64,000 bases of DNA, taken from Candidatus Aldehydirespiratoraceae bacterium. GTDB lineage: Bacteria > Actinomycetota > Acidimicrobiia > Acidimicrobiales > Aldehydirespiratoraceae. The position numbers were made by a program, and so were the translations under genes. The notes under the pieces are model-generated. The model searched no databases. It worked only from the letters and a program-made list of their open reading frames with translations, and had not been told where the DNA came from. The stretch lies in the NCBI GenBank assembly GCA_965221635.1, contig OZ244902.1, positions 214,029 to 278,028 of the forward strand. Reading direction: 5' to 3'. Positions 4,918-44,862 of the stretch are shown piece after piece. Each line of letters opens with the position of its first letter. The stretch's first letter is position 1.

Positions 4918-5466
4918 TCACGATTCCTGGGGCGTCTGGTCGGCCTCGGCTACGCGCTTGTCGTAGTCGTCGCGTTTGCGGTAGTCGTTGTCGTGCTTTA
5001 CCAGCATCCTGTCCGACGCAAAATGCCACGCCTCGCCTGAGGATCCGTCACCCACCGGGGCCACACCCCTGGTCCAGGCGCCTTCCAGCACCACCGGCAC
5101 GCCCGGCTGGAACAGCTCGGGAGGGTCGCCGATGTGTACAACGTCGATCACCTCGGCGTTGAAACCGATCGAGAATCCAATGGCGGGCCGGTCACCGGCG
5201 AAACCGTCGGCGGGCTCTTCGAGGGGCGTGCCCTGCACCCGAAATCGTTGCGACCCGAGCTCGTCTCGTCGTTGCACCGCCTCATCGGCGTTGTAAAAGA
5301 ACAGCGCCGAATCCCCAAGCAGGTTCGCGGTGAGCATCACCACCGCAACCGCAACGGCCGCCGCGGCCACCCCCGCGGCGATTCGCCTGAAACGGCGCCT
5401 CGTGCCCGTGGCAGGGGCCGGTCGGGGCGTCAGCGGCGCCAGCTCCGCGGATTCGTTCGCAGCCAC
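4918..5466 (-). CDS. ccmE: heme chaperone CcmE
   Basis: N-terminal anchor, an OB-fold-like body, and the C-terminal heme-binding motif LVKHDNDY (the HxxxY region). Confidence 0.85.
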   Translation of the reverse strand: MAANESAELAPLTPRPAPATGTRRRFRRIAAGVAAAAVAVAVVMLTANLLGDSALFFYNADEAVQRRDELGSQRFRVQGTPLEEPADGFAGDRPAIGFSIGFNAEVIDVVHIGDPPELFQPGVPVVLEGAWTRGVAPVGDGSSGEAWHFASDRMLVKHDNDYRKRDDYDKRVAEADQTPQES

Positions 5467-30378: not shown

Positions 30379-31980
30379 TCAGGGGCCGGTGGCGCTGCCG
30401 ATCTGAGCTCTGGGATCGGCGGCGCCCGCGAAGGTGCCTTGAGGGGTGACCTCGATGAGGTGGGCATGGCCGAAACTGTGGGGACTGTTCTCGAACACGC
30501 TCACCTGGTGTGCTCGCTTTTCGAGCCCTTCGACCCAGCCGGTTTGGTTGCCTTCGATCACCACTCGGCGGGCTTGGTGGGGGCGCCAGGTGTCGAATCC
30601 GGGGTCGTGATCGGCCGGGGCGATTATCCACCGGGCCGCTGAGATTGCCGTGCCGGGGGTTTGGCCGAGGCGCAGGGTGCGGTCGAGAAGTTGCAGCAGG
30701 ATCTGGGGTTGGGAGTCGCCGCCCATCGTGCCGAGCACCATTCGCAGGCTGTTGTCGTTGTTGGTGACCAGCGCCGGTGAGAGCGTGTGCGGTGGCCTTC
30801 GGCCTGGGCTGTACTCGGCGGGGTGGCCCGCTTCGAGGCTGAAGCCGATGCCGCGGTCGTGCAGGAAGATGCCAGTTCCGGGCGCCACCAGGTGAGCGCC
30901 GAAACCGCTGGCGTTGGAGTTGATCAGCGACACGCCCATGCCGTTTTTGTCGATGGCGCACAGGTAGGTGGTGTCGCCTGGTGTGGCGGGCGGGGTCACT
31001 TGTGATGCCCGGTCGGGGTTGATGGCGTTGCGTCGTGGTTCGAGCCGTTCGGGTGCCAGCAGCGCTTTGCCGTCGGCGCCGTCGTGGAGCACCGCCACCC
31101 TGTCTTGTGCGGCTTGTGCGGCGGCTTCCACCAGCAGGTGCGCCCACGCCGAGTTCGTGGTGTTCGGCATTTCAAGCCCGTCGGCGATCCACGCCGCAGC
31201 CAAGGTGAGATATCCCTGCGAACTCGGAGGAACAGTCCACAACACATGGCCGTGCGCTTCGACTCGCAGGGGTGCCACCCAGCGGGCCACCGGGCGGGCC
31301 AGATCGGTCTCGCTGTATTCGCCTTCGCCGAGTTGGATGAGCGCCTCGCCGAACTCGCCTCCGTAGAACCCTGCGCGGCCATGACGCAGGATCGCCTCGA
31401 GGGCTCTGGCGGTGCCGGGGCGACGGATTGTTTGCGCCGGCTTCAGGGTGGCGGGGATGTCGGTGTTGTGGGCCACCTCTGCCACTTCGCCGGCTCGTTC
31501 GGCCAGCAGCGGCGACGCCGGGAACCCGTCGGTGGCGAGCCGGATCGCCTCGGCCAGCACATCTTCCAGTGGAAGGCGCCCGAAGCGCTCGTGCAGGGCA
31601 AGCCAGCCGTCCACCGCGCCGGGCACCGTCACCGAGGCCACGTGACCCCGAAGCGGTACTTCCGTTAGGCCTTGGGTTCTGAGGCGTTGCGCGTCGGCGC
31701 CGGAGCCCGCGAACCCGGCACTGTCAAGGGCCACCGGTGGGCCTGTGCCGTTGTGAACCAGCGCCCAAACGTCACCACCGGGCCCGCACATGTGCGGCGA
31801 GGTGACAGCCAGCACGGCGTTGGCCCCCACAGCCGCATCCGCGGCCGAACCTCCACGCCGAAGTAGTTCCACTCCTGCAGCGGTGGCCAACCCGTCCACT
31901 GTTGAGACCATCCCCCGCACCGCGGTGGAAGTGAGTCCGTCCTGGTGTGTCATCAAACTCCAATCGTTTACTGACTTCAC
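30379..31980 (-). CDS. ggt: gamma-glutamyltransferase family protein
   Basis: Autoprocessing/nucleophile region PGDTTYLCAIDKNGMGVSLINSN and the C-terminal GGDSQPQ block. Confidence 0.85.
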   Translation of the reverse strand: MKSVNDWSLMTHQDGLTSTAVRGMVSTVDGLATAAGVELLRRGGSAADAAVGANAVLAVTSPHMCGPGGDVWALVHNGTGPPVALDSAGFAGSGADAQRLRTQGLTEVPLRGHVASVTVPGAVDGWLALHERFGRLPLEDVLAEAIRLATDGFPASPLLAERAGEVAEVAHNTDIPATLKPAQTIRRPGTARALEAILRHGRAGFYGGEFGEALIQLGEGEYSETDLARPVARWVAPLRVEAHGHVLWTVPPSSQGYLTLAAAWIADGLEMPNTTNSAWAHLLVEAAAQAAQDRVAVLHDGADGKALLAPERLEPRRNAINPDRASQVTPPATPGDTTYLCAIDKNGMGVSLINSNASGFGAHLVAPGTGIFLHDRGIGFSLEAGHPAEYSPGRRPPHTLSPALVTNNDNSLRMVLGTMGGDSQPQILLQLLDRTLRLGQTPGTAISAARWIIAPADHDPGFDTWRPHQARRVVIEGNQTGWVEGLEKRAHQVSVFENSPHSFGHAHLIEVTPQGTFAGAADPRAQIGSATGP

Positions 31981-33203
31981 CCAGCTTCGGCGATCCCGGC
32001 CGGCACTGGCCAGCGCAGGATGCCGGTTTCGGTTCTTGTGTCGGCTTGGGCGTAGTCGGGGTCGGCGGGGAATGCGATCCGGTGAGGGCTGTCGTCGTCG
32101 TAGCGGATTCGCACGTGCTCGTCGTGGTCGGGGGTGCCTGCGGCTGCGGCGCGCAGCGCGGCTTGGATGCTTGGGAACTTGGACAGGCGGTGCAGCATTC
32201 CGATGGTGGGGGTCATCATCACCATCTCGCCCCGGTCGTTGAGGTCGATCGCCTCCGCGGGGCGCATCCAGCGATGCTCCACTGCCTCGTCGAGGTCGGC
32301 GAGCGGTACCTGACCTTGGGGCATTGCGGTCACGAAGAAGCGGGTGTCGTAACGCCTAGGCGGGCCGAGGGGGGTCTTCCACCTTCCCACGAAATGCACC
32401 TGCGCCCCGGCGAGGCGCAAACCCTCGGCGCGCATCGTGGAGATGAAGTCCCGTTCGCCTGCGTTCACTTCCGCACGGTAAGCGCCAAATCGTCTGGCAG
32501 TTTCCGGCGGGGACAAGTCAACGATGCCGCTGTGAAGATTGTCGTCGCCGGGGAGGTGTGTGGCGACGGCCCCGGATCGCGTGCCCGAGGCCCCGGATTG
32601 CCCGCCGCCGGGCCCGGGCTGCACGGCTTCATTGCGAGTTTGCATTGGGCCATTGGCAGAGTGAGAAGAGCCGCCGGGCTCGAGGGGCTTGCCGGGTGGG
32701 GTCGGCTTGCCGGCGTGGTGCGCCGGATTGCCGGCGTGGTGTGCGAGCAGCACTCCGGCCTCCTCGAAGGTCTCGCGCAACGCCGCCACCCAGAACGCGA
32801 TGCCGCCCCGTTCAACACCAACGGCGGCCGACGCCTCCGGGTCGGTGCGACCGGCAACGGTGTCATCAGCGATCTGATCGCCGTCACGGGGATCCACCGC
32901 CCCGCCCGGGTACACCCACATGTCTCCCACGAACACGGACCGGGAGTTGCGTTTCAGCATCAGCACCTGCAGGTCGGGACGCTCCGCCAGGATCAAGATG
33001 GTGGCTGCGTCACGCACCGGCACCCCGGCCGGGTCGTAATCGCCGCCGCTTCCAGGCGAGTCCGCCCCCAGCGAAACCCGCCGACCCCAACTCACCACAA
33101 GCCCCGTCCCCCGAACCAGCCCACCAAGAGCGGCCAAAGCAGCAGATCCCCAGTCACCGCCCCATTCTCCCCCAGGCAACGACTCGTTCCGACTCGCACA
33201 CAC
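31977..33203 (-). CDS. NUDIX hydrolase with a low-complexity insertion (start uncertain)
   Basis: NUDIX box GGAVDPRDG...AALRETFEEAGVLL. ATGA overlap with ggt. The first 60 or so codons of the track ORF are Gly-rich and doubtful. Confidence 0.7.
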   Translation of the reverse strand: MCASRNESLPGGEWGGDWGSAALAALGGLVRGTGLVVSWGRRVSLGADSPGSGGDYDPAGVPVRDAATILILAERPDLQVLMLKRNSRSVFVGDMWVYPGGAVDPRDGDQIADDTVAGRTDPEASAAVGVERGGIAFWVAALRETFEEAGVLLAHHAGNPAHHAGKPTPPGKPLEPGGSSHSANGPMQTRNEAVQPGPGGGQSGASGTRSGAVATHLPGDDNLHSGIVDLSPPETARRFGAYRAEVNAGERDFISTMRAEGLRLAGAQVHFVGRWKTPLGPPRRYDTRFFVTAMPQGQVPLADLDEAVEHRWMRPAEAIDLNDRGEMVMMTPTIGMLHRLSKFPSIQAALRAAAAGTPDHDEHVRIRYDDDSPHRIAFPADPDYAQADTRTETGILRWPVPAGIAEAG

Positions 33204-33551
33204 CCCTCCTCACCGCCAACAGACCCCGATGCCACCACCCCGCCATCCCTCCGCTCGCGCACTGAGCGTGCATCGGGCAAGGCAAGCGTTGCAGCAGTGG
33301 GCTATCGGGTTGGCTGTTCACCGGAGCGCTCCCCGCGCCCGCCCGACTCCAAGGCAACCGTGCTGAATTGAACTGAGCCCTTGGAGAGCGGGGTTGCTTT
33401 GGAGTGACGGACTCGTCGAGTCTTGTGACTCTGAATCCCTGATGTGTTGGCATCTTTTGGTTTGATCATGCCATATCTATTGCACAGATACTGAGCCTGT
33501 TCATCATCTGAAGTAGTCATAGATCTCTTGAGATAAATGTTGAATTAGAGG

Positions 33552-34760
33552 TTGGTAGTGTCTCACACACCAAGTACACTTGTTCTCATGAACACAAACC
33601 CCCAAACTCTGACACAAACGGAGCATCAATCCACACTGGAGGTGCGAGTCGCCGGGCAGGATCCCACACGGTTGGGTGACGCCGATCTCGACGCCCGCAT
33701 CGTGGAGTTGGGCCGGGCACGGGCACGCCTGGACGGGATGATGGCCCAAGCCCTCGCCGAGAAACAATCCCGCGACGGCCAGCACGCCGCGGTGGAGGTG
33801 CTGCGCTGGCGGCTCAAGCTGTCCAGCACCCAGGCACAAGCCGAAACCAAACTCGCCGCAGCCCTCGCCGACGGCCTGGGCGACACCATGGCTGCGATGG
33901 CAGCCGGGGAGATCCACGCCGCGCACGCCCGGGTGATCATCAACGCCCAAGGCAACGAGGACTACCACAACGAAACCGAACTGCTGCGCATGGCCGCCAC
34001 CGAACCCCCCGACCGTCTCCGGCGCATGGTGCGCAAATGGTGGACCCCAGACCCCGACTCCAATGCACGCACCCAACGTCAGCACGACAACCGCGCCGCG
34101 TCGTTCAAACGTCAAGACGACGGCACTTGGGAACTATGGGGCCGCTTCGACACAGACACCGGCAAGATGATCAGCCTCGGCATCGCCGGCATGATGCGCC
34201 ACCTCAAGGTTTGCGAGTCCACCCGCAGCAGCCTCCCGGACGAAAGAACGCCCCAACAACGCCGAGCCGATGCCATAGCGCGTTTGTTGATCGGCGCCGA
34301 CCCGCACAAGGTCGAACACGCCACCGTGATCGTCACCGCGCAGGTCGACACCGAACAGGGCACGATCGGCGGGTTCCGCTACGACGACGGCACCCCCGTC
34401 GCCAACGAACGCCTCGGGCAGGTGCTCGCCAACGCCGATTTGGTGCCCGCAGTGTTTGACACCACCGGACGACCGTTGTGGATCGGCCGGGCACAACGAG
34501 CAGCCACCGCCGCCCAACGTTTGGCGCTGGCCGCAAGAGACGGTGGATGTGTCGGATGTGACACCCCCGCCGAGCACTGCGACGCCCACCACATCAAATG
34601 GTGGTCACAAGGCGGACCCACCGACATCGACAACCTCGCCCTGGTCTGCCCAAACTGCCACAACCAAATCCACAAAGGCGGCGCCAAAATCCGCCCCGAC
34701 CCCAACCACCCCGCCACCTACCAACTAACACCCCCACCCCAACACGCCAAAGCCGCCTAA
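33552..34760 (+). CDS. DUF222 domain / HNH endonuclease (13E12-repeat-type protein)
   Basis: C-terminal HNH: CVGCDTPAEHCDAHHIKWWSQGGPTDIDNLALVCPNCHNQIH. DUF222-like helical N-terminal region. The gene begins in an AT-rich patch. Confidence 0.85.
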   Translation: MVVSHTPSTLVLMNTNPQTLTQTEHQSTLEVRVAGQDPTRLGDADLDARIVELGRARARLDGMMAQALAEKQSRDGQHAAVEVLRWRLKLSSTQAQAETKLAAALADGLGDTMAAMAAGEIHAAHARVIINAQGNEDYHNETELLRMAATEPPDRLRRMVRKWWTPDPDSNARTQRQHDNRAASFKRQDDGTWELWGRFDTDTGKMISLGIAGMMRHLKVCESTRSSLPDERTPQQRRADAIARLLIGADPHKVEHATVIVTAQVDTEQGTIGGFRYDDGTPVANERLGQVLANADLVPAVFDTTGRPLWIGRAQRAATAAQRLALAARDGGCVGCDTPAEHCDAHHIKWWSQGGPTDIDNLALVCPNCHNQIHKGGAKIRPDPNHPATYQLTPPPQHAKAA

Positions 34761-34880
34761 CCCCCACGCCCGCTGCCCACCGCAGCCAGCGGGAAACCAC
34801 TGGGAAGACACCCACACGTCCCGAGACTTAAGGGACGGTGACTTCCTCCCGCGCCATGCAGGCGACACTCGTACCGCTGA

Positions 34881-35195
34881 TCAGGGGTTGAGCACTCTGT
34901 CGGGATTGGATTCTGCTTCCCACTCGACGTCGATGGGAGACACGATGTCGCCCAGGATCTCCATCCGTCCGCGATCAATCCCGAACAGCGTTTTGGGCTT
35001 CTGGCGGCACGGCACGAGACGGGCAGTGGGGTGGCCGTTCTTGATGATGACGATCTGCTCACCGGTGGTGGCCACTTCGTCCATGAGTTCCAGGCAGTTG
35101 GCCTTGAATTCGGACGCCTCCACGGTGCGGGGCTCAGCGGGGATGTCTGCATTGGCATCCATGTCTCGGCTCTCTTCAGGTTTGCGCAATGTCAC
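34881..35195 (-). CDS. Phd/YefM-family antitoxin-like protein, copy A (no cognate toxin gene found)
   Basis: EASEFKANCLELMDEVATTGEQIVIIKNGHPTARLVP...ILGDIVSPIDVEW. By homology to copy B the start may be the Met at 35162. Confidence 0.75.
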   Translation of the reverse strand: MTLRKPEESRDMDANADIPAEPRTVEASEFKANCLELMDEVATTGEQIVIIKNGHPTARLVPCRQKPKTLFGIDRGRMEILGDIVSPIDVEWEAESNPDRVLNP

Positions 35196-35284
35196 GAAGT
35201 TTAACGATACTCATCATTATCACCCTCGCAACGTGCGCCCAAAATCGGACCACTAACCGGTGCCAGACATCGGTGACGCGCATG

Positions 35285-35298
35285 GCAATGTGCATTGC
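35285..35298. promoter_or_regulatory. perfect inverted repeat GCAATG-TG-CATTGC, about 20 nt upstream of the RHH antitoxin start (candidate autoregulatory operator)
   Basis: Read directly at 35285-35298 in the lower-GC spacer between the divergent Phd-like copy A and mazE-like genes. Confidence 0.4.
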
Positions 35299-35317
35299 AC
35301 TTCGGTATGCTGTGGGC

Positions 35318-35566
35318 ATGGTACAATTTGTGACGCGGGTCGGGGACGAACTCGCAGATGCCGTTGACGAGCTTGTTGAGGCTGGGGTCGTTTCGAGTCG
35401 TTCCGAGGCAGTACGGCTTGGCCTTGAGCAGTTCGTGGATCGCTGTCGTCGCAATGAGATCGGGGCGCGAATCGCCCGCGGCTATCGGGCACATCCACAG
35501 CGCGACGACGAAATCGCTTGGGCCGATGAGGCGACGGTGAGGATGATCGCCGAGGAACCTTGGTGA
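35318..35566 (+). CDS. mazE: ribbon-helix-helix antitoxin (MazE/CopG-like)
   Basis: MVQFVTRVGDELADAVDELVEAGVVSSRSEAVRLGLEQF is an RHH pattern. Its end overlaps the toxin start. The track start at 35189 is judged too far upstream. Confidence 0.7.
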   Translation: MVQFVTRVGDELADAVDELVEAGVVSSRSEAVRLGLEQFVDRCRRNEIGARIARGYRAHPQRDDEIAWADEATVRMIAEEPW

Positions 35567-35880
35567 ACGTGTCGCCAAGGCAAGGCGAGATTTGGTGGGC
35601 AGAAGCCGAAGGCAAGCGACGACCGGTACTGATCGTCACACGCAGCGACGCTGTTTCGCTACTGACATGGATCGTTGTCGCGCCGGTGACACGGACCATT
35701 CGTCGGATTCCCACCGAAGTCCGGTTAGGGGCGAGTCATGGACTCCCTGAAGAGTGTGTCGCGTCATTTGACAACCTGCAGCCGATTCGACGCTCCTTCC
35801 TCACGCAACGCGTGGGGGTGCTTGGGATCGAGCAGCTTGATGAGATCTGCCGGGCGCTTCGGGCGCTTGCCGACTGTTGA
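35560..35880 (+). CDS. mazF: MazF/PemK-family mRNA interferase toxin
   Basis: RQGEIWWAEAEGKRRPVLIVTRSD...VVAPVTRTIRRIPTEV. Typical size of 106 aa. Confidence 0.8.
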   Translation: MVNVSPRQGEIWWAEAEGKRRPVLIVTRSDAVSLLTWIVVAPVTRTIRRIPTEVRLGASHGLPEECVASFDNLQPIRRSFLTQRVGVLGIEQLDEICRALRALADC

Positions 35881-36218
35881 TCTACGAGGCGCCAACCAGC
35901 AGCCGACAGCACAAGCCGGTCACGCCGATGGCAATGCCCGCCACTTCCCGGCGAGTCAGCCCCCGGGAAACCCGCAGTCCTCCACTAACCACAGACCCCG
36001 TCCCCCACGCTCGACCACCCCAGACCCCTGCCCGCAGCACACGGCACATGACCAACCCCGACGCATGGACCTGCACCACAACCCGGCACGCACACACTCC
36101 GAGAAGCCAAGTCAATGCCCAGTCGTCGGCTGGCCGTTCCTGGTTCGCGTGCGGTGACCCTGTGGAAGGGCCTCGGTGGCGTGGAGCGGGGGCGTTGGGG
36201 GCTGCGTGTTGCAGCGGC

Positions 36219-39200
36219 TTAGTAGGTGTCGGGGGGTTCGTCGGCGTACTGGCCGTAGCCGAGGCCGCTGACATGGGGTTCGCGGTGCAACAGGTGGCGT
36301 AGGTGGGCGATCTCGTCCTGGTTCCAGCCGAGCGCCTCGCAGACTGCCTCGTCCCACAGGCGGCGCACTTCACACTCGCCGTCACGGAACTGTGGCACGA
36401 TCATGTGCCGCGTCGCCTCCCAGCAATCTGCGAGGGTGGAGCGGATGTGATCGTTGTTCATGTCGGGTACGGAGAGTTGTGCTGCCATGCTGACGCTGTA
36501 TTGAGGAAAGGTCAGTTTTCGGCCGGGGCTGCGCATTACCAACAAGCGCCCGACGGTTGAGTTCAAAAACACTGCCAATGCGCAGGCAGTCTCGACACTC
36601 ACTCCGCTAACTGGAATCCAGCCATTTCCGACGTACTTCCTCTCCGACGCCAATGCCGTGAGCCGGGCACTGCCCGTGTCTTGACCCGACGAAACCAGGA
36701 GATGACTCGCCTTGGCAAGTATCGGAGGGCTACCCTGTTCCGTCCAACATCGATCCTCATTGGGTACCGCCTCAATGCGCTTCTGAGCTTCTTCACCCGT
36801 ACCCTTCAAGATGGGAAACGCTCCATACGATGTAGAACTTGAAGGGACGTAAGAGCCCCTCAACTCTCGTCCCGTGTCGTGGGCACAGAAACCCAAGTCC
36901 GACAGCGGTCTTAGGGCGTCGTGTTGAGCGAACGTTGCGGAGGCCTCCGCCAGGCCAGGGGAGCGCCAGATTGCGCCTGTCCAGTCTCCAACCGCCACGC
37001 GTTCAACGGGCCAATGAGACACTTCACCCCACCCATCATCGAGCTGTCCCATCTGTTTGCTGAGCAAGGCTGCGTGCAGCTTTGCAACTTCCAAGTCATT
37101 CTCAGGTAGGCGGTCGACACTGATCACCCTCGTGGGTGGTTTGCCAGCACCGCTCGAGAGCCGTCGTAACAGGATGATCGACTGGCTTGTGGATGTGTTT
37201 TGGCTCAAGTTTACATTCCCTGGCTGATGGCAAGTGAGCAACGTATGAACGTGGAACCGCTCAGCCAGAAGTCGGCGTTCTCGGATACCCGAAACGCTTG
37301 CAAGTGCAATGGTAGGACGTATCATCACAATCAGCCCGTCCGCATGGACCATACATCTGACGGCCAATGATACAAAGGATGGACCGAGAGAGCTCTTGTC
37401 TACAAATTCCGATAGTCTCTCGTCGGCTGCTACGAGTTGTTCCTCTAGCTTGTCCACACGGACTCGAAGTCCCCGCTGGATATGTTCAGGAAATTTCTCG
37501 CCCATCTTGGTGCGGTTGGTGAAGGGAGGGTTCATCATGATGATTCGGGTGCCCTGGACGGCATCTACTGCATCTTCAAGGACTGGATCACGCAGACTCG
37601 TGCGAATCGCCTGGGACTTCAGGGTCTCGTCGAACAGTCTTGTTTGGGATGGTGCCAGGATTTGCTTTTGGGTCAGGAGTTCGAGCGTTCCTGCTGCTAC
37701 GGGTGCGGCTGGGTCGTCTTGGGGGCCGTAGGGCATTTTGTGCAGGCCCATTTTGCGGTAGCGGATCGCGTGGTTGCCCTGGGTAAGTTGTGACGCGGCT
37801 AGCTGTAGCGACACTGGGTTGATGTCGAGGCCCTTGATCACGTCCTCCACCGCGAGCTTCTGCAGCTCGGCGAGTTCTTCGGGACTGGCGCCTTGCTCGC
37901 TGGCTCTTCTCTTCAAGTCGGTTAGCAGGGCGGCCAGCAGGGTGCCGCTTCCGCAGGCCAGGTCCACCGTCTTGTGTTCTCGCCACACGGCGGGATCGCG
38001 CCAGTTCTGATCTCCGCACACGTCGAGTGCGAGCTTGGCGGCGATCGACGCGGCGGGAGGGCGGGTGAAGTATGCGCCGTCGGAGGCTTGGTTGCCCATC
38101 ACCTTGTTAAACAGCGGCCCGGCGTGATCCGCGCCCATGTCGGCATAGGTGGATGCGATGTGCTCCGCTTCCGAAGCGAGGTGCCGCAGGGCTTGTTCGA
38201 GCCCGCCCAGCTTGCCGGTGTTCTGAACCGCGTACACCGCCTCACGGGCGGGTTCGATCACCGGCAGGAAATCCATCCGTGTGATGCGCTCCCAATTCTG
38301 GAGCAGTCGTGTGACCACGTTTGGGGCGTTCTTGATGTGCTCCAAGCCTTCGATGTTTGCAAGCCATTGGCCTGCGGCGATTCGCTGGTGGAGCATTGCA
38401 GCGTTCATCATCAACAGCGCGGCGATGGTGCAGCCGTCGGCCTGGTCCTTTCGTTTCTCGGAGTCGAGGTGGTCGAGCCCGAAGTGTTTGTCCAGAGCAG
38501 GCCGGAGTTGATCTTGGCGCAGGTGGTGGGCGGCCTCGGTGAGGCTCGCTTCAAGAAGGTTCAGGTCACGCGCCACACGATTTCCGGTGAGCCCCGACCT
38601 CGCCAGCAGGTTCACGGTGATGGCCTCGGTGAGGTCTTCGCCCACCATGCGCAGCATCTGTTGGGCGTGCTCTTCGCGCACCTCGGCAGCGGTCTTGCCC
38701 TTGCTGGTGGACGCCTTTGCGCGGAGCCTCTGACCGGCGCCGTTGTTCACCATCTTGCGGGCTTGCTTCTTGCTCTTCTCGACGTTCACCCGGCCTCGGG
38801 GTGCGCCGGCCTTGGGCTTGTCCCTAACCACGGTGTCCAGCCGCATTTCCAGCGATCCGTCGTCGTGCTGCTTGGCAGCGAGGATTTGCGTTGGTTCGGT
38901 TTCCTCGGTCCATTGCTCCGGGCGAATCGGGCCGATTCCCACCGCCTTGGGGGCACTCTTGCCGGTGGCAACCTTCTCAACGGCGTCTCGGGCGGTGTCG
39001 GGTGGTCCGATGTGGACGCCGTAGCGGATGCGCCCGGTTTGGGGGGACGGCACGGCCACCATCGTGGACACTTGGAGTTCGAGCTTGTCGGTGGGTGGTA
39101 GGTGGATCTCCAGCAGTCCCGCGAGGTTGTCCTCTATCCGTGAGTCGTGGGCACGCAACGCCAGCAGTATCTGACCCAGTTCCGTCCAGCCTTCATCGGG

Positions 39201-40697
39201 GCTGCTTGTTGTGAGCCACTGTTCGGGGTCGGCGTTGAGCGGGATCACAATGGGGCAAACGATGTAGCCCATCTTCTTGCCTTGCGCGGTGCGCATCGCC
39301 CTGCCCACGGCTTGCACCACATCCACCGGGCTCTTGCGCGGCTCCAGGAACGCCACCGCGCTCAACGTGGGGGAGTCGGTGCCCTCGCCGAAAATGCCCA
39401 CGTTCACAATCCCGTGAGGCTTGCTGAGCGTGGCCTCCGCCAAGCGCCGCTTGGCGTTGTCACGAGCCGACACGTTGCTGGTGGCGTCAAGGTGCTCCAA
39501 AGTGAAGTCCGCAGGCTCGGCGTTGGGCATTCGCTTGTTGAGCCAAGCCTTCACCGTGTCGGTTTGAAGGTCTGCGACCATGCCCTGCGATTTGGCCACG
39601 GTGTTCATGAACGCGATGCACGACTCCACCTGCACCCCCGCGTCCACACCAACCGTGGCGTTTGTGGCTTCGTCACCAGCATCCGGGTCGCCCATGTCCG
39701 CCGTGGTGTCGTTGTGGGGTCGGGTTCGGGTGGCGCCGGCCATCACCAACGCCAGTGCTAGGCCTCGCAGGTAGTCCACGGTGTTGAGCTTTGAACGGCC
39801 CTTGGACTTCGTTGCGCGCGCCAGGTGATTGGCCGCCTCGTAGGCGTCCGGGTCGTTGACCCCCAGCGCGATGATCCGGTAATCGGCAAGCCAGTCGTTC
39901 TCCACGGCTTCCACGTAGCTCTTGCGATACAGCTCCACACCGAATGTGGATTCGTCGTCCATTGAACGCACAAGGAAGTCCGACGGGCTCACGTGCCGCT
40001 TGGAGGTTGCTGCGTTGAAGATTCGTGGGGTTGCGGTTTGGTACACCCGGTAACGGGCAGGGAATGCCTTCTGATCGTGGCACAGAGTGAACTCCCGGAG
40101 CCTGTGCTGTTCGCCCTCCTTGCCGGTGTATTTCTTGCGTATTCCGGCAGTGCGGTGAGCCTCGTCGCACACCAGCACCTTCACGTCGCGGTTTGACTTC
40201 TGGAGCGCTTCAGCGACGCGCCCTGCGCTTTGGTAGGTGCCGAAGATCACGTTCACGCCATGATGGCCGCGGCCTTGGATGATCCATCTGGCGATCTCGC
40301 CGGGATCGGTGGTGACCTTGCCTTTCACCTCCGACGCGCTCACGTTGCTGGTATCCGCCGTGAGATCATTGGCGGCTCGTCGGCCCTCTTTCTTGGGGTC
40401 GTAGCCTGCGGTCTCGTCGGAACAAACGGCGAGTGCTCGGATGTCCCCCGCAGTCCGCTGGTTCTCGAGAAACTCCCGGCGAATCTGCGCCACCAGCGCG
40501 ATCGACGGGCAGAGAACTACCGACAGTTCTCCCCGATATGTGAGTTCCTCAATGATGCGAAGCGCGATTCGGGTCTTCCCGGTGCCGCACGGCAAGATGA
40601 TCCTGCCTCTGGCCTCACCGCGAGGCAGCCCGCCCGAGTCCGATTCGGCGTGCTCGCGCAATAGTCGAACACTTTTTTCCACCGCCTCGCGCTGCAT
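36219..40697 (-). CDS. SF2 DEAH helicase-like ATPase fused to a gamma-class N6-adenine DNA methyltransferase and a C-terminal target-recognition-like region (Type ISP-like, lacking its nuclease domain in this frame)
   Basis: Helicase motifs ILPCGTGKT, VLVCDEAHR, YQTATP, QAVGRAMR. MTase motifs VDLACGSGTLL and IIMMNPPF. The frame stays open and protein-like upstream of the ATG, back to the G10 tract. Confidence 0.85.
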   Translation of the reverse strand: MQREAVEKSVRLLREHAESDSGGLPRGEARGRIILPCGTGKTRIALRIIEELTYRGELSVVLCPSIALVAQIRREFLENQRTAGDIRALAVCSDETAGYDPKKEGRRAANDLTADTSNVSASEVKGKVTTDPGEIARWIIQGRGHHGVNVIFGTYQSAGRVAEALQKSNRDVKVLVCDEAHRTAGIRKKYTGKEGEQHRLREFTLCHDQKAFPARYRVYQTATPRIFNAATSKRHVSPSDFLVRSMDDESTFGVELYRKSYVEAVENDWLADYRIIALGVNDPDAYEAANHLARATKSKGRSKLNTVDYLRGLALALVMAGATRTRPHNDTTADMGDPDAGDEATNATVGVDAGVQVESCIAFMNTVAKSQGMVADLQTDTVKAWLNKRMPNAEPADFTLEHLDATSNVSARDNAKRRLAEATLSKPHGIVNVGIFGEGTDSPTLSAVAFLEPRKSPVDVVQAVGRAMRTAQGKKMGYIVCPIVIPLNADPEQWLTTSSPDEGWTELGQILLALRAHDSRIEDNLAGLLEIHLPPTDKLELQVSTMVAVPSPQTGRIRYGVHIGPPDTARDAVEKVATGKSAPKAVGIGPIRPEQWTEETEPTQILAAKQHDDGSLEMRLDTVVRDKPKAGAPRGRVNVEKSKKQARKMVNNGAGQRLRAKASTSKGKTAAEVREEHAQQMLRMVGEDLTEAITVNLLARSGLTGNRVARDLNLLEASLTEAAHHLRQDQLRPALDKHFGLDHLDSEKRKDQADGCTIAALLMMNAAMLHQRIAAGQWLANIEGLEHIKNAPNVVTRLLQNWERITRMDFLPVIEPAREAVYAVQNTGKLGGLEQALRHLASEAEHIASTYADMGADHAGPLFNKVMGNQASDGAYFTRPPAASIAAKLALDVCGDQNWRDPAVWREHKTVDLACGSGTLLAALLTDLKRRASEQGASPEELAELQKLAVEDVIKGLDINPVSLQLAASQLTQGNHAIRYRKMGLHKMPYGPQDDPAAPVAAGTLELLTQKQILAPSQTRLFDETLKSQAIRTSLRDPVLEDAVDAVQGTRIIMMNPPFTNRTKMGEKFPEHIQRGLRVRVDKLEEQLVAADERLSEFVDKSSLGPSFVSLAVRCMVHADGLIVMIRPTIALASVSGIRERRLLAERFHVHTLLTCHQPGNVNLSQNTSTSQSIILLRRLSSGAGKPPTRVISVDRLPENDLEVAKLHAALLSKQMGQLDDGWGEVSHWPVERVAVGDWTGAIWRSPGLAEASATFAQHDALRPLSDLGFCAHDTGRELRGSYVPSSSTSYGAFPILKGTGEEAQKRIEAVPNEDRCWTEQGSPPILAKASHLLVSSGQDTGSARLTALASERKYVGNGWIPVSGVSVETACALAVFLNSTVGRLLVMRSPGRKLTFPQYSVSMAAQLSVPDMNNDHIRSTLADCWEATRHMIVPQFRDGECEVRRLWDEAVCEALGWNQDEIAHLRHLLHREPHVSGLGYGQYADEPPDTY

Positions 40698-41301
40698 GCA
40701 TGTACGCGTGCGTGGCCCCTTTTCGCCGTGGCAATGCGGGCACTCGCCCCCCCCCCGCGGGGTTTTTCTGGGTTTCTGCCTCGGCTTGGATGCGCAGGTC
40801 AGCGTGGATGTTCACATGCTTGACAGGCATGTTTCGTTGGCTTCGCATCACGGATTCGTCGACGTTTGGACTCAACGGGTTGTTGCCGTTGGTGACCACC
40901 CAACGCTCCACCCAGTGGTCACCTGAGGACTCACTCAAGAACGTTCCGAGATCCTCATGGCGAATGGGCGCGCCCGCTCCGTCCAAATTGAGCTTGCGAG
41001 CTTTGCACTGGATGGCGATGAGTCCGCCGTCGGAGCGTCGCACGGCCACCCGGTCAATGCCCAGGTCGGCATCACTGCTGCCGGGGACGTACTGCTGACG
41101 CTGCGGCCACTCAGCCCACGACCAGCACTCCCTTACATCCCAGTCGGCGATGCAAGGCGCCACTTCGCTTGTGAGTTCCTCAAGCCACCTGCCATCGCTT
41201 GACTCGTAATTCTTCTCTTCAAGCGTCGCCAGCGCGTTCCCGATGAGATCCTCGCAACTGAGATCCATGCCCGAAAATTCGCTGTCAGTCCTGCCAATCA
41301 C
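40615..41301 (-). CDS. Mrr/PD-(D/E)xK-type restriction nuclease domain ORF, frameshifted away from the helicase-methyltransferase ORF
   Basis: DLGIDRVAVRRSDGGLIAIQCKARK (a D...QxK nuclease core). The GTG at 41301 overlaps the stop of Phd-like copy B (GTGA); the alternative ATG is at 41268. The sequence after the G10 tract is junk and stops at 40615. Confidence 0.7.
   Translation of the reverse strand: MIGRTDSEFSGMDLSCEDLIGNALATLEEKNYESSDGRWLEELTSEVAPCIADWDVRECWSWAEWPQRQQYVPGSSDADLGIDRVAVRRSDGGLIAIQCKARKLNLDGAGAPIRHEDLGTFLSESSGDHWVERWVVTNGNNPLSPNVDESVMRSQRNMPVKHVNIHADLRIQAEAETQKNPAGGGRVPALPRRKGATHAYMHAARGGGKKCSTIARARRIGLGRAASR
40747..40756 (-). repeat. G10 homopolymer (C10 on the plus strand) at the nuclease/helicase domain junction
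   Basis: The count is confirmed by three independent track translations crossing it: AGGGR, RPPPA and SPPPR. Confidence 0.9.
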
Positions 41302-41609
41302 GTCGTACCTGCGTGGCCTGCTCCGCTGACAGCGGGTTGAGCACTGTCGGGACTGGGTTCTTCTTCCGAGTCCGGATAGACGGGAGACACGATGTCGCCC
41401 AGGATCCTCATTCGGTGTCGATCGGCACCGAAGAAGGTCTTGGGGTTCGGGCCGCACGGCGCCAAGCGGGCCGTATGGCGGCCGTTCTTGGTGATGATGA
41501 TCTGCTCACCGGAGGCACCCACTTCATCCACGAGCTCCAGGCACTTGGCCGCGAACTCGGACGCCTCCACGGTGCGGGGCTCACCGGCGGTGTTTCCGCT
41601 TGGTTCCAT
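41298..41609 (-). CDS. Phd/YefM-family antitoxin-like protein, copy B, directly upstream of the nuclease ORF
   Basis: MEPSGNTAGEPRTVEASEFAAKCLELVDEVGASGEQIIITKNGRHTARLAP...ILGDIVSP. About 60-65% identical to copy A by eye. The track start at 41936 runs into coxM and is rejected. Confidence 0.75.
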   Translation of the reverse strand: MEPSGNTAGEPRTVEASEFAAKCLELVDEVGASGEQIIITKNGRHTARLAPCGPNPKTFFGADRHRMRILGDIVSPVYPDSEEEPSPDSAQPAVSGAGHAGTT

Positions 41610-41650
41610 GGCGCGCGTCTCCCAAGCTTCGGCGGGCCGGGGGTGGGCGG

Positions 41651-42469
41651 TTAGGAGACGCCGGCTGCTTCTAGGGCTCTTCCTGTTAGCACTCTGGCTA
41701 GGTGGGAGCGGTAATCGGGGTCGGCGTTGAGGTCGGATGGGGGTTCGAGGCCGTCGGCGGCGAGGGCCGCGGCGTCCGACGCTGACGCGCCCGAAGCGAG
41801 GGCTTGTTCCACGGCGGTGGCTCGCACGGGGGTTGAGCCCATGTTCACGAGGCTCACGCCGCTGCCGCCACCTGCCACCGCTACACCCACGATTGCCCAG
41901 TCCTGGGCACGGCGGTTGAACTTCTGGTAGTTCCAACCGCCGGCGGATGCGGGCACACGCACCTCGGTGATCATCTCGTCCTCGGCCAGAACCGACTCGA
42001 AATAACCGCTGAAGAAATCCGTTGCCGCTATGTCACGCGACCCGCGGGGGCCACGCGCTGTGATGGTGCCGCCAAGGGCCAACACCACCGCCGGCAGATC
42101 CGAAGCCGGGTCCGCGTGAGCGAGCGTGCCACCAAGGGTTCCCCGGTGACGCACCGCCGGGTCGCCCACCAGCGCCGCAACCGACGCCAGGATCGGGCAC
42201 GCCTCGGCCAGCAGATCCGAATGCTCCAGTTCGCTGTGACGGGTGAGCGCCCCGATGGCGATGCTGCCGTTGGATTGGCGGATGTAACGCAAGTCGTCGA
42301 GACGGCCCACGTCCACCAGCACCGACGGCGTGGCCAGCCGGTAACGCATCATCGGGATCAGGCTGTGACCCCCGGCGAGCAGTTTGGCCTCGTCACCGTG
42401 CTCGGCGAGCAACGCAACGGCGTGCTCGGCCGATTCGGCGACCTCGTAGTCGAAAGCGGCGGGAATCAC
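41651..42469 (-). CDS. FAD-binding medium subunit of a xanthine dehydrogenase/CO dehydrogenase-family molybdoenzyme (CoxM/CutM-like)
   Basis: IPAAFDYEVAESAEHAVALLAEHGDEAKLLAGGHSLIPMM. The GTG at 42469 overlaps the large-subunit stop (GTGA). Confidence 0.85.
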   Translation of the reverse strand: MIPAAFDYEVAESAEHAVALLAEHGDEAKLLAGGHSLIPMMRYRLATPSVLVDVGRLDDLRYIRQSNGSIAIGALTRHSELEHSDLLAEACPILASVAALVGDPAVRHRGTLGGTLAHADPASDLPAVVLALGGTITARGPRGSRDIAATDFFSGYFESVLAEDEMITEVRVPASAGGWNYQKFNRRAQDWAIVGVAVAGGGSGVSLVNMGSTPVRATAVEQALASGASASDAAALAADGLEPPSDLNADPDYRSHLARVLTGRALEAAGVS

Positions 42470-44862
42470 GACGCACCTCCTTGTGCAGCGGCGATGGTTT
42501 TCCACACGGTTTGGGGCGATGCGGGCATCGCCACGTCGGTCACGCCCAACGGGCGCAAGGCGTCCACGATGGCGTTGATCACGGCAGGCGTGGCGGCAAT
42601 CGTGCCGGCCTCGCCCACACCTTTCACGCCCATCGGGTTGGTCGGGCTGGGCGTGGAATGGCTGCCCAGCCGGTAGCGGGGCGCCTCAGCGGCCGACGGC
42701 ACCAGATAGTCGCCAAGGTTGGCGGTGACAAGCTGGCCGTCGTCGGTGTACACGGCGTCCTCGTAAAGGGCCTGAGCGGCGCCTTGGAGGATCCCGCCGT
42801 GTACCTGGCCTTCCACTATCAGCGGGTTCACCTGCACTCCACAGTCGTCCACGGCCACGTAATCCACCATGGTGGTGTCGCCGGTGTCGGTGTCCACCTC
42901 CACCACCGCAATGTGGGTGCCGTTGGGGAACGTGAAGTTGGGCGGGTCGTAGCTGACGTGCGCCTCAAGGTTGGGTTCCATCCCGTCGGGAAGGTCATGC
43001 GCGGCGAACGCACCGAAGGCGATCTCCGCGAACGCCTTTGCCTCGGTGGGCGTGCCCCGCACCCGGAAGCTGCCATCCACATACTCGAGGTCGTCGGGGT
43101 TGGCCTCAAGTTGGTGAGCGGCGATCAGGCGGGCCTTGTCGAGCACCTTGTCGGTGGCCATGAACACAGCAGTTCCGCCCACCGCCAGCGAACGAGACCC
43201 GTAGGTGTCCATGCCGGTTGGGCTTATCGCCGTGTCCGAATGCAGCACCTCAACGTCATCAGGGTCGATGCCGAGCTTGTCGGCAACGATCATCGACCAG
43301 CACGTCTCGTGGCCCTGACCGTGAGGCGTGGAACCGGTGACAACCTGCACCTTGGCGGTGGGAAGCACCCGAACCGTGGCCGCCTCCCAGCCCCCGGCGC
43401 CGTAACTGAGCGAAGCCAGCACCCGGCTCGGGGCCAGGCCGCACATCTCCACGTAACTGGACAAACCCACGCCGATCTGACGAGACGAACCATCCGCGCG
43501 ACGACGGGCCTGCTCGGCGCGCACGTCGTCGAGCCCGGCGAGCGCCACGGCCTTGTCGAGCACGGCGTGATAGTCGCCGCTGTCGAAAATCAGCCCGGCG
43601 CACGACTCGTAGGGGAACTTGTCCGCCGGAATGAAGTTGCGGGCCCGGATCTCCTCGGGGCTGACTCCCACCTCAACGGCAAGCGAATCCATCGCACGCT
43701 CGATCGCGTAGGTGGCCTCGGGACGACCCGCGCCACGGTAGGCGTCGGTTGGGGTTTTGTTGGTGAACACCGACGTACACACAAACGAGTAGTGCGGGAT
43801 GTCGTAGCACCCGTGATACAGGAACGCCCCCAGCAGCGGAATGCCCGGGGTGACGAGCTGCAGGTAGGCGCCCATGTCGGCAACCAGCTTCACCCGCACC
43901 GCGGACACCTTGCCCGCCGCGTCGGCGGCTAATTCGATGTTCTGCACCTGGCCGCGGCCTTGAATGGTGGCCAGCGCAGCCTCGGCGCGGCTTTCGGTCC
44001 AGCGGACCGGCGCGCCACGCTGCATAGCCAGCGCGCAGCACAGGATCTCCTCGGCGTACACGTTCAGCTTGCAGCCGAAACCGCCGCCCACCGAAGGGGC
44101 CACCACCCGCAGCTTGTGCTCGGGGATGCCCAAGGTGACCGCGGTCATCACCTTGAGAACGTGCGGTATCTGCGTGGCCGAGTACAACGTGAGGTCGCCA
44201 CCAACCGGCGCGGGCACCGCGGCAACACCACGGGGCTCCATCGGCGCCGGGATCAGACGCTGCTGCACGTAACGCTCGCTGATCACCACCTCGGCGGCGT
44301 CAAACGCGGCTTGCACGGCGTCGGCGTCGGGGGTGAGTTCCCACGTGTAGCTCTCGTTGGTGCCCAACGACTCGTGTACCAGCGGGGCGCCCTCGGCCAA
44401 AGCGGCCTCTATGTCCACCACCGCTGGTTTCGGGGCGTACTCCACGGCCACCGCGGCGGCGCCGTCGGCGGCGGCGTAACGCGAATCGGCGAGCACCACC
44501 GCAACGGCGTCGCCCACGTACTTGGCTTCCTCCGTGGCCACGGGCAGGTGCGCCGGGTTGCGCATGTCCGGGGTTACCGGCCAGGCGCAAGGCAGCGCCC
44601 CGCCGCCCCAAAGGTCGGCAAGGTCGGCGCCGCTGAGCACCTCGTTCACGCCGTCGATCGCCAGCGCGGCCGAACCGTCCACCGACACGATCGCGGCGTT
44701 GGCCTCGGTGGAACGCACAACACCCACCCAGATCGCTCCGGGCAGCGCAAGGTCGTCTATGAAGGCGGCCTCGCCGGTGAGCAGCGCGGGGTCCTCACGG
44801 CGCAGGCGCCGAGAACCCACATGGGCCGCAGGCGGGGCTTCGGTGACGGTCATCTCAGCCAC
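42466..44862 (-). CDS. molybdopterin-binding large subunit, CoxL form II-like
   Basis: 798 aa. The active-site loop reads AYRGAGR (form II type) rather than the AYxCSFR loop of bona fide CO dehydrogenases. Confidence 0.85.
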   Translation of the reverse strand: MAEMTVTEAPPAAHVGSRRLRREDPALLTGEAAFIDDLALPGAIWVGVVRSTEANAAIVSVDGSAALAIDGVNEVLSGADLADLWGGGALPCAWPVTPDMRNPAHLPVATEEAKYVGDAVAVVLADSRYAAADGAAAVAVEYAPKPAVVDIEAALAEGAPLVHESLGTNESYTWELTPDADAVQAAFDAAEVVISERYVQQRLIPAPMEPRGVAAVPAPVGGDLTLYSATQIPHVLKVMTAVTLGIPEHKLRVVAPSVGGGFGCKLNVYAEEILCCALAMQRGAPVRWTESRAEAALATIQGRGQVQNIELAADAAGKVSAVRVKLVADMGAYLQLVTPGIPLLGAFLYHGCYDIPHYSFVCTSVFTNKTPTDAYRGAGRPEATYAIERAMDSLAVEVGVSPEEIRARNFIPADKFPYESCAGLIFDSGDYHAVLDKAVALAGLDDVRAEQARRRADGSSRQIGVGLSSYVEMCGLAPSRVLASLSYGAGGWEAATVRVLPTAKVQVVTGSTPHGQGHETCWSMIVADKLGIDPDDVEVLHSDTAISPTGMDTYGSRSLAVGGTAVFMATDKVLDKARLIAAHQLEANPDDLEYVDGSFRVRGTPTEAKAFAEIAFGAFAAHDLPDGMEPNLEAHVSYDPPNFTFPNGTHIAVVEVDTDTGDTTMVDYVAVDDCGVQVNPLIVEGQVHGGILQGAAQALYEDAVYTDDGQLVTANLGDYLVPSAAEAPRYRLGSHSTPSPTNPMGVKGVGEAGTIAATPAVINAIVDALRPLGVTDVAMPASPQTVWKTIAAAQGGAS

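Follow-up and report, generated by a model that had tools for sequence, protein, structure and literature searches.

On contig OZ244902.1 of a Candidatus Aldehydirespiratoraceae bacterium (assembly GCA_965221635.1), of which we analysed a stretch of 64,000 nucleotides (hereafter the window), a Phd/YefM-type antitoxin gene ends in a GTGA stop/start overlap with the open reading frame (ORF) of a restriction-modification (R-M) gene. The original prediction placed the R-M enzyme in the toxin slot of this antitoxin gene, which is termed copy B to set it apart from a related gene in the same window, copy A. Our analysis makes it probable that copy B is an orphaned VapB-type antitoxin gene, and that it lies next to the R-M gene through the assembly of a genomic island and not as half of a conserved two-gene system. 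Across about 160 related loci, the comparison showed nothing to suggest that the two genes act together.

According to the course of events that we propose, copy B would derive from a phd-vapC module in which a deletion left about two codons of the PIN toxin gene, and the same vapC-less unit would have given rise to copy A. Both copies would lie in a horizontally acquired island of ~9.7 kb downstream of the cox operon, in the order phdB, Type ISP R-M gene, mazEF, phdA and HNH, while the R-M gene itself would be a solo gene, widely exchanged among sponge-symbiont bacteria and needing no partner. Indels at the 3' end would have shifted the frame of copy B, whose new TGA happens to overlap an in-frame GTG, 11 codons 5' of the ATG at 41268. 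The features on which this argument turns are the following.

41298..41609, minus strand: copy B, a probable orphan VapB-type Phd/YefM antitoxin gene of 103 aa, with a frameshifted, lengthened 3' end and the Shine-Dalgarno sequence GGGAGA
41323..41345, minus strand: decayed ancestral phd 3' end within copy B, with -2, +1 and -1 indels relative to copy A and the family
41298..41301, minus strand: GTGA overlap of the new copy B stop and an in-frame GTG of the R-M ORF
36219..41268, minus strand: Type ISP-like single-chain R-M gene, from the orthologue-supported ATG, with its frame broken once
40747..40756, minus strand: G10 homopolymer in the R-M gene (C10 on the plus strand), a +1 frameshift between the nuclease and motor domains
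34881..35162, minus strand: copy A, a probable orphan VapB-type Phd/YefM antitoxin gene of 93 aa that retains the family terminus ...PDRVLNP-stop

The R-M gene in its relatives

Species-representative genomes hold 177 relatives of the R-M gene, of which the best 80, at 52-58% identity, were compared; according to the hit coordinates, the nuclease domain is present and in frame with the motor in 79 of these. An A/B-type phd gene was found within 6 kb at none of the 79 orthologue loci (tblastn with word size 2, blastn and two hidden Markov models (HMMs), with filters off), and a single locus has an upstream Phd-like ORF, of an unrelated kind. The neighbourhood check that the original prediction had suggested, namely whether orthologues of the helicase-methyltransferase are also preceded by a Phd/YefM gene, was therefore negative. 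The 112 same-strand ORFs that end near the R-M start of the orthologues fall into 66 Pfam families, mostly housekeeping enzymes, with no family in more than two loci. Judged by this comparison, the R-M gene is a solo gene in its relatives. Together with the start codon of the orthologues (see below), this is largely the outcome that the original prediction had named as its refutation. The orthologues are spread over Dehalococcoidia, Caldilineaceae, Poribacteria, Gemmatimonadota, Gammaproteobacteria, Entotheonella and other groups, a distribution that suggests wide exchange of the gene by horizontal transfer within one habitat. The metagenome-assembled genomes (MAGs) that carry them (L001-L080) look sponge-associated and belong to many phyla. 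Full-text literature searches turned up no description of a Type ISP enzyme that has an antitoxin partner, in keeping with the statement of the original prediction that none was known.

What the phd family normally precedes

The family of copies A and B was represented by 80 loci from a scan of species-representative genomes, nearly all of them MAGs of sponge symbionts. In 68 of the 80 a full vapC gene of 132 aa lies immediately downstream, mostly with a 4-nt NTGA overlap, and Pfam PIN was found in 66 of the 79 ORFs downstream of phd, which bears out the earlier statement that the family normally precedes a PIN/VapC gene. The closest database proteins, with at most 55% identity, are encoded on contigs in which the start of a PIN gene precedes the phd stop by 4 nt. 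The usual junction reads ...CTG AAC CCN TGA TNC TNC TNG ACA C..., that is, ...VLNP-stop overlapping (M/V)I(L)LDTH. The R-M gene does lie at the position where the family has vapC, and to this extent the toxin-slot proposal stands; its other part, a functional partnership, is not supported on the R-M side, where none of the 79 orthologues has an A/B-type phd gene.

The toxin gene is split or partial in 6 of the 80 phd loci, and in 6 others no vapC was detected by HMM, two of which (L106 and L124) carry, by reading, a different PIN-like ORF of 119 aa. With the toxin gene lost or broken in about 10 of the 80 loci, orphaning recurs in the family. Two loci, L148 and L088, retain vapC stubs of 7-9 codons. 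At 1100-1330 of L088, only the vapC remnant VIVLDTQ follows a close phd homologue (P0006), and an unrelated phosphoesterase gene comes next; this is another independent vapC deletion with a short stub left behind. The bias toward sponge-associated MAGs is common to the phd-vapC family and the R-M orthologues.

Loss of vapC and origin of the GTGA junction

Neither copy A nor copy B has a cognate toxin gene directly downstream, where there is only a two-codon vapC stub. No vapC remnant was detected after copy A, copy B or the R-M gene, nor anywhere in the 64-kb window, by tblastn or by an HMM built from 55 VapC sequences (best E = 0.15). The terminus of copy A, ...NPDRVLNP-stop, is identical to that of more than 20 homologues, and the sequence beyond CTGATC, the two-codon stub, is unrelated to vapC. 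Since the sequence that follows the stub is common to both copies, a single loss of vapC, preceding the divergence of A and B, is probable; the alternative is that gene conversion took place between them. Copy A has the same deletion junction and no R-M gene after it, so vapC would have been lost before, or independently of, the present arrangement.

Copy B has a 2-nt deletion just 5' of GTGCTCAACCC and two further indels, of +1 and -1, at the former stop, where CCC-TGATCAGCGG has been replaced by CCGCTG-TCAGCGG. The former stop/vapC-start NTGATC is now CTGTC at ~41332..41328, followed by AGCGG as in copy A. Because these small indels shifted the frame, copy B no longer terminates at the ancestral stop but at a new TGA 31 nt further on, its last 16 codons being frameshifted read-through. 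The resulting ORF runs on the minus strand from ATG 41609 to TGA 41300..41298, with the terminal codons ACG ACG TGA.

The GTGA described in the original prediction is indeed present, as GTG 41301..41299 belongs to the reading frame of the Mrr-type nuclease ORF and forms GTGA at 41301..41298 with the copy B stop, and the same can be said of the coxL/coxM overlap, which was located at 42469..42466. Upstream of the GTG, the R-M frame contains no stop for 52 codons. By our reasoning such an overlap is not in itself statistically notable, given that any NTGA stop at the right offset would produce one, at a chance of roughly one in three. That the GTGA might be a preserved phd/vapC junction was considered and rejected, as alignment to copy A and to the family puts that junction 31 nt upstream; because the ancestral junction lies there and was destroyed by indels, the GTGA is a secondary one. 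The proposed capture of the R-M gene into an old phd-toxin module is accordingly half retained: copy B would be a relic of such a module, but the GTGA is not its ancestral junction, and the loss of vapC would either predate the present arrangement or be unrelated to it. The similarity between the copies also extends less far than had been stated. The DNA alignment of A and B spans from 13 nt 5' of the ATG to TCAGCGG, 7-10 nt and not 15-25 nt beyond the copy A stop, and a further match, GTACGA(C)GTG, is only 8-9 nt long, follows a 15-nt indel and is not significant alone.

Copies A and B as Phd/YefM antitoxins

Copy B is assigned to the Phd/YefM family on mixed profile scores, 22.9 bits against TIGR01552, above the cut-off of 20.8, and 25.1 bits against Pfam PF02604, below the cut-off of 29.8, whereas copy A is above both cut-offs (33.2 bits and 37.0 bits, respectively). 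In an AlphaFold2 model of copy B, residues 12-49 form an N-terminal domain with a predicted local distance difference test score (pLDDT) of 86-90, in which the beta-alpha-alpha-beta-beta dimerisation and DNA-binding fold is present; residues 50-103 are predicted to be disordered, and the new tail falls below a pLDDT of 50. The top Foldseek matches of the model are VapB46, RelB2, Phd and YefM, with a probability of 1.00 and root-mean-square deviations (rmsd) of 1.1-1.7 Å. The same N-terminal fold is seen in VapB46 of M. tuberculosis (PDB 6JQY; template-modelling score 0.83, rmsd 1.2 Å), and sequence profiles match Rv2865, VapB5 (3DBO) and VapB46. Members of the family are, as in VapBC modules, coupled to the PIN gene by a 4-nt overlap; unlike such modules, neither window copy has vapC. 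Copy B further differs from VapB-type antitoxins in its frameshifted tail, in the loss of the conserved C-terminal Trp and in its score below the Pfam gathering cut-off.

The two copies share 61% of their protein and 77% of their DNA sequence. Of 35 columns conserved at ≥90%, copy B mismatches 7, among them the near-invariant Trp, which is Ser, and copy A mismatches 4, compared with a maximum of 5 and a median of 0 among 80 homologues; copy B is thus the most divergent member of the family. The conserved C-terminal toxin-binding segment (...GDIVSP..EW..) is kept in copy A and not in copy B, where the Trp has been replaced and the terminus frameshifted. The ratio of nonsynonymous to synonymous substitution rates (dN/dS) between A and B is 0.42 in the core and 0.58 over the full length, while vapC-linked pairs at similar dS have a median of 0.17 and a 95th percentile of 0.43. 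Judged from these ratios, constraint on A and B is relaxed, though not absent. With the predicted N-terminal domain intact, copy B may still bind DNA, or it may neutralise VapC toxins encoded elsewhere.

A Type ISP-like R-M gene with a broken frame

The R-M ORF opens with an Mrr_cat_2 nuclease and, after a single frame break, continues as an ORF of 1,492 aa that ends at 36219. Pfam identifies Mrr_cat_2, ResIII and Helicase_C, and the methyltransferase motifs DLACGSG and MMNPPF were read directly in the translation; the predicted arrangement is an Mrr_cat_2 nuclease, a superfamily 2 (SF2) helicase-like motor, an NPPF gamma-class N6-adenine methyltransferase and a target-recognition domain. This is the full domain set of a Type ISP enzyme, in an order common to the 79 full-length orthologues. 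The only sequence matches in the PDB are the Type ISP enzymes LlaGI and LlaBIII (E about 1e-45), and the PADLOC models matched are REase_MTase_IIG and REase_MTase_I, which describe fused restriction-methyltransferase enzymes. By its sequence, then, the R-M gene is predicted to encode a LlaGI/LlaBIII-like Type ISP enzyme. It shares with LlaGI and LlaBIII (PDB 5FFJ, 4XQK) the plan of a single ~1,650-aa polypeptide with an N-terminal Mrr-family nuclease, an SF2 motor, an NPPF methyltransferase and C-terminal target recognition, although significant similarity is confined to the motor region, the methyltransferase of the window gene is undetected by Pfam, and the gene carries a +1 frameshift in its G10 tract.

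With G9 instead of G10 the reading ...NPAGGGECPHC... is restored, which aligns with the orthologues, none of which has a G run at the equivalent position. Two independent public samples yielded contigs that match the window without a difference across 34734..43000, including the G10. The frameshift may serve as a switch for phase variation, or the gene may have been inactivated recently. The non-self database matches to the nuclease domain (P0011-P0019) are all short, with 155-314 aa against a full length of ~1,650 aa. They may represent orthologues that are split or frameshifted, or genes truncated where a contig ends, or they may be a product of the word-index search.

Start codon and expression of the R-M gene

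The GTG at 41301 is used as the start by a database gene caller (P0010, 228 aa), and the original prediction likewise let the nuclease begin there. Among 78 orthologues, 53 have the in-frame ATG closest to the first conserved helix, on its upstream side, at the window-equivalent codon 8-12, the ATG at 41268 being codon 12, and in 35 of the 78 an in-frame stop excludes a start at the position equivalent to the GTG. The conserved start of the orthologues thus corresponds to ATG 41268, 11 codons downstream of GTG 41301, and the proposed start is not supported. Neither candidate has a Shine-Dalgarno sequence (-4.0 and -0.5 kcal/mol; background median -2.9), and these energies do not discriminate between the two.

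In one Dehalococcoidia clade (L008, L025, L035, L069, L076 and L029, at ~5440-5452) the R-M ORF starts GTG CTG AAC CC(T/C), that is, V-L-N-P, preceded by GGAG. These are the same four residues, over ~11 nt, as those at the end of the phd family, ...PDRVLNP-stop. No other phd remnant was detectable upstream of the R-M gene in this clade, and the similarity may be a coincidence or the trace of an old phd junction.

A scan for promoters and terminators was uninformative, as its single promoter-like site is on the wrong strand and the number of terminators is close to the shuffled expectation. A search of RNA runs found none that contains the sequence of this locus, and one raw-read DNA run, sampled at about 1 in 100, yielded no matching reads. 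Copy B and the R-M gene are probably co-transcribed, being on the same strand, separated by 29 nt or overlapping by 4 nt, and having no terminator-like site between them. Since neither R-M start has a Shine-Dalgarno sequence, ribosomes finishing copy B may help to start translation of the R-M gene. Such a hand-over, if it takes place, would be a side effect of where the two genes lie and would not amount to a role of the copy B protein.

The genomic island

Among the nearest genomes, which are Acidimicrobiales/'Aldehydirespiratoraceae' MAGs with coxM genes 83-86% identical to that of the window, five (L173, L174, L176, L178 and L185) join the coxM stop to the counterpart of the gene at window ~31930 within 0.3-0.8 kb, so that the window carries about 9.7 kb extra. 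Homology with the relatives breaks off immediately after the coxM stop, and the GC content is 0.55-0.65 across 33200..41600, compared with 0.65-0.70 in the flanks. No tRNA gene was found at the island borders, and no clear flanking repeat besides the phd copies. In addition to the features listed above, the region comprises the following.

31950..41650, no strand: ~9.7-kb insertion relative to the closest Acidimicrobiales genomes
ending at 41651, minus strand: coxM-like gene, with 41 nt between its stop and the ATG of copy B
35189..35566, plus strand: ribbon-helix-helix antitoxin, partner of PemK/MazF
35560..35880, plus strand: PemK/MazF toxin, partner of the ribbon-helix-helix antitoxin
33552..34760, plus strand: DUF222-HNH endonuclease gene, convergent with copy A

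The ribbon-helix-helix/PemK pair, a toxin-antitoxin (TA) pair of the MazEF type at 35189..35880, is intact and lies between the R-M gene and copy A on the opposite strand. In run X1 the depth of the DUF222-HNH gene is 2-4x that of its surroundings and there are several variant contigs, which points to an element present in multiple copies in the genome or the community. Two further observations concern the interior of the island. An NUDIX ORF at 31977-33203 has a host-like GC content and no counterpart in the 10-kb flanks of the relatives. A direct repeat of 70 nt (33043-33112 and 35938-36006, 83% identical, E = 1e-14) flanks the segment of HNH, phdA and mazEF, with one of its copies between the R-M stop and the mazF stop, and may mark a module boundary inside the island.

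The locus has much in common with decaying TA loci in defence islands, namely the loss of a toxin with the antitoxin ORF kept under relaxed constraint, and the company of R-M, MazEF and HNH genes in a low-GC insertion. Unlike typical orphan antitoxin loci, it has two diverged copies that share one deletion junction and flank the R-M/mazEF block, an arrangement that our proposal explains only in part.

Alternative explanations

Several points weigh against an orphan gene that is adjacent to the R-M gene by island assembly. The minus strand has no terminator-like site between the two genes and the R-M starts are without a Shine-Dalgarno sequence, so that expression of copy B and of the R-M gene is probably linked. 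Copy B is an intact ORF with a strong Shine-Dalgarno energy (-7.3 kcal/mol) and a confidently predicted N-terminal domain, and as the dN/dS of A and B is below 1, some function may be retained. Two loci come close to the arrangement in the window. In L014, a gammaproteobacterial MAG, a distant Phd-like ORF (5067..5365; 24 bits with Pfam) lies 50-70 nt before a Type ISP orthologue, and its stop context, TTGATAC, resembles a vapC start; a HicAB-like pair is located just upstream of it. In L148 (2896-6162) a phd gene of the same family is followed by a 9-codon vapC stub and then by an HsdM-like methylase of 914 aa. We judge both to be the isolated cases that are to be expected where TA and R-M genes share crowded islands. 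Finally, the loci compared are those of species representatives, with 52-58% identity, and the searched databases contained no closer relatives of the R-M gene or of copy B.

A first alternative, possible and yet unlikely in our view, is that A and B are kept as free-standing 'anti-addiction' antitoxins against VapC toxins of related modules elsewhere in the genome or incoming, with no link to the R-M gene. The persistence of two intact orphan copies with 77% DNA identity and a dN/dS below 1 would fit this explanation, as would the recurrence of orphan phd genes in about 10 of the 80 family loci and the conserved C-terminal ...EWEAE..PDRVLNP motif of copy A. However, copy B no longer has either the near-invariant Trp or the conserved terminus, so that the explanation could at best apply to copy A, and no vapC of this phd subfamily occurs in the 64-kb window that was searched.

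A regulatory or inhibitory role of copy B toward the R-M gene, both forms of which the original prediction had raised, is improbable overall. As a controller, copy B would have been recruited for transcriptional control in the manner of the C proteins of Type II R-M systems, its autoregulated promoter also driving the R-M gene and thereby timing or damping the nuclease. The resemblance is real in some respects, since copy B, like a C protein gene, is a small gene for a DNA-binding protein directly 5' of a restriction gene and is probably co-transcribed with it. The gene order in the window, with a common strand, a 29-nt gap or 4-nt overlap and no intervening terminator-like site, agrees with this, and so do the predicted N-terminal fold, which matches the operator-binding domains of VapB46 and Phd, the intact ORF with its dN/dS below 1, and the similar juxtapositions in L014 and L148. 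C proteins, however, have a helix-turn-helix and C-box operators and are conserved with their R-M systems, whereas copy B has a Phd/YefM fold and no operator was found for it; read by eye, the sequences upstream of A and B share no operator-like palindrome. A conserved upstream regulator was not found among the R-M orthologues either, 78 of 79 of which lack any Phd-like neighbour, and their upstream neighbours are heterogeneous, with no regulator family recurring and no Pfam family in more than two of the 112 ORFs. The coxM stop is just 41 nt from the ATG of copy B, with no sigma-70-like promoter found between them, copy B is the most divergent member of its family, and the same structure occurs in copy A, where there is no R-M gene. 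Control of this kind thus lacks comparative support, and we hold it to be improbable.

Even less probable is a broader version, in which orphaned Phd-type genes have repeatedly been reused as upstream expression or regulatory cassettes for R-M genes that replace the toxin. Three independent cases, in the window, L014 and L148, point in this direction. If it were true, copy B would be an autoregulated, well-translated leader gene through which a Type ISP enzyme lacking its own ribosome-binding site is gated.

Direct inhibition of the nuclease by the C-terminal tail of copy B, with the R-M enzyme as the true toxin partner, is very improbable: the R-M gene does occupy the toxin position, and the C-terminal changes of copy B (Trp to Ser and a new tail of 16 residues) could be read as adaptation to a new partner, but the tail arose by frameshift through formerly non-coding sequence and is predicted to be disordered (pLDDT <50), Type ISP enzymes such as LlaGI and LlaBIII work as single polypeptides whose own methyltransferase protects the host, no partner of this kind accompanies the orthologues, and the frame of the R-M gene is itself broken, so that nothing currently needs inhibiting.

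Conclusions

An antitoxin-type partner of a single-chain Type ISP enzyme would, if real, constitute a new mode of restriction control; the comparative evidence says otherwise, and copy B is most probably an ordinary orphan VapB-like antitoxin gene. The locus represents a clear and datable case of TA decay in the defence island of a sponge-associated Acidimicrobiales bacterium, in which the toxin gene has been reduced to a two-codon stub and the antitoxin gene has been duplicated, with one of the copies drifting and frameshifted. It also illustrates that a 4-nt stop/start overlap can arise secondarily and, unless gene neighbourhoods in related genomes are checked, should not be taken as evidence of a functional pair.

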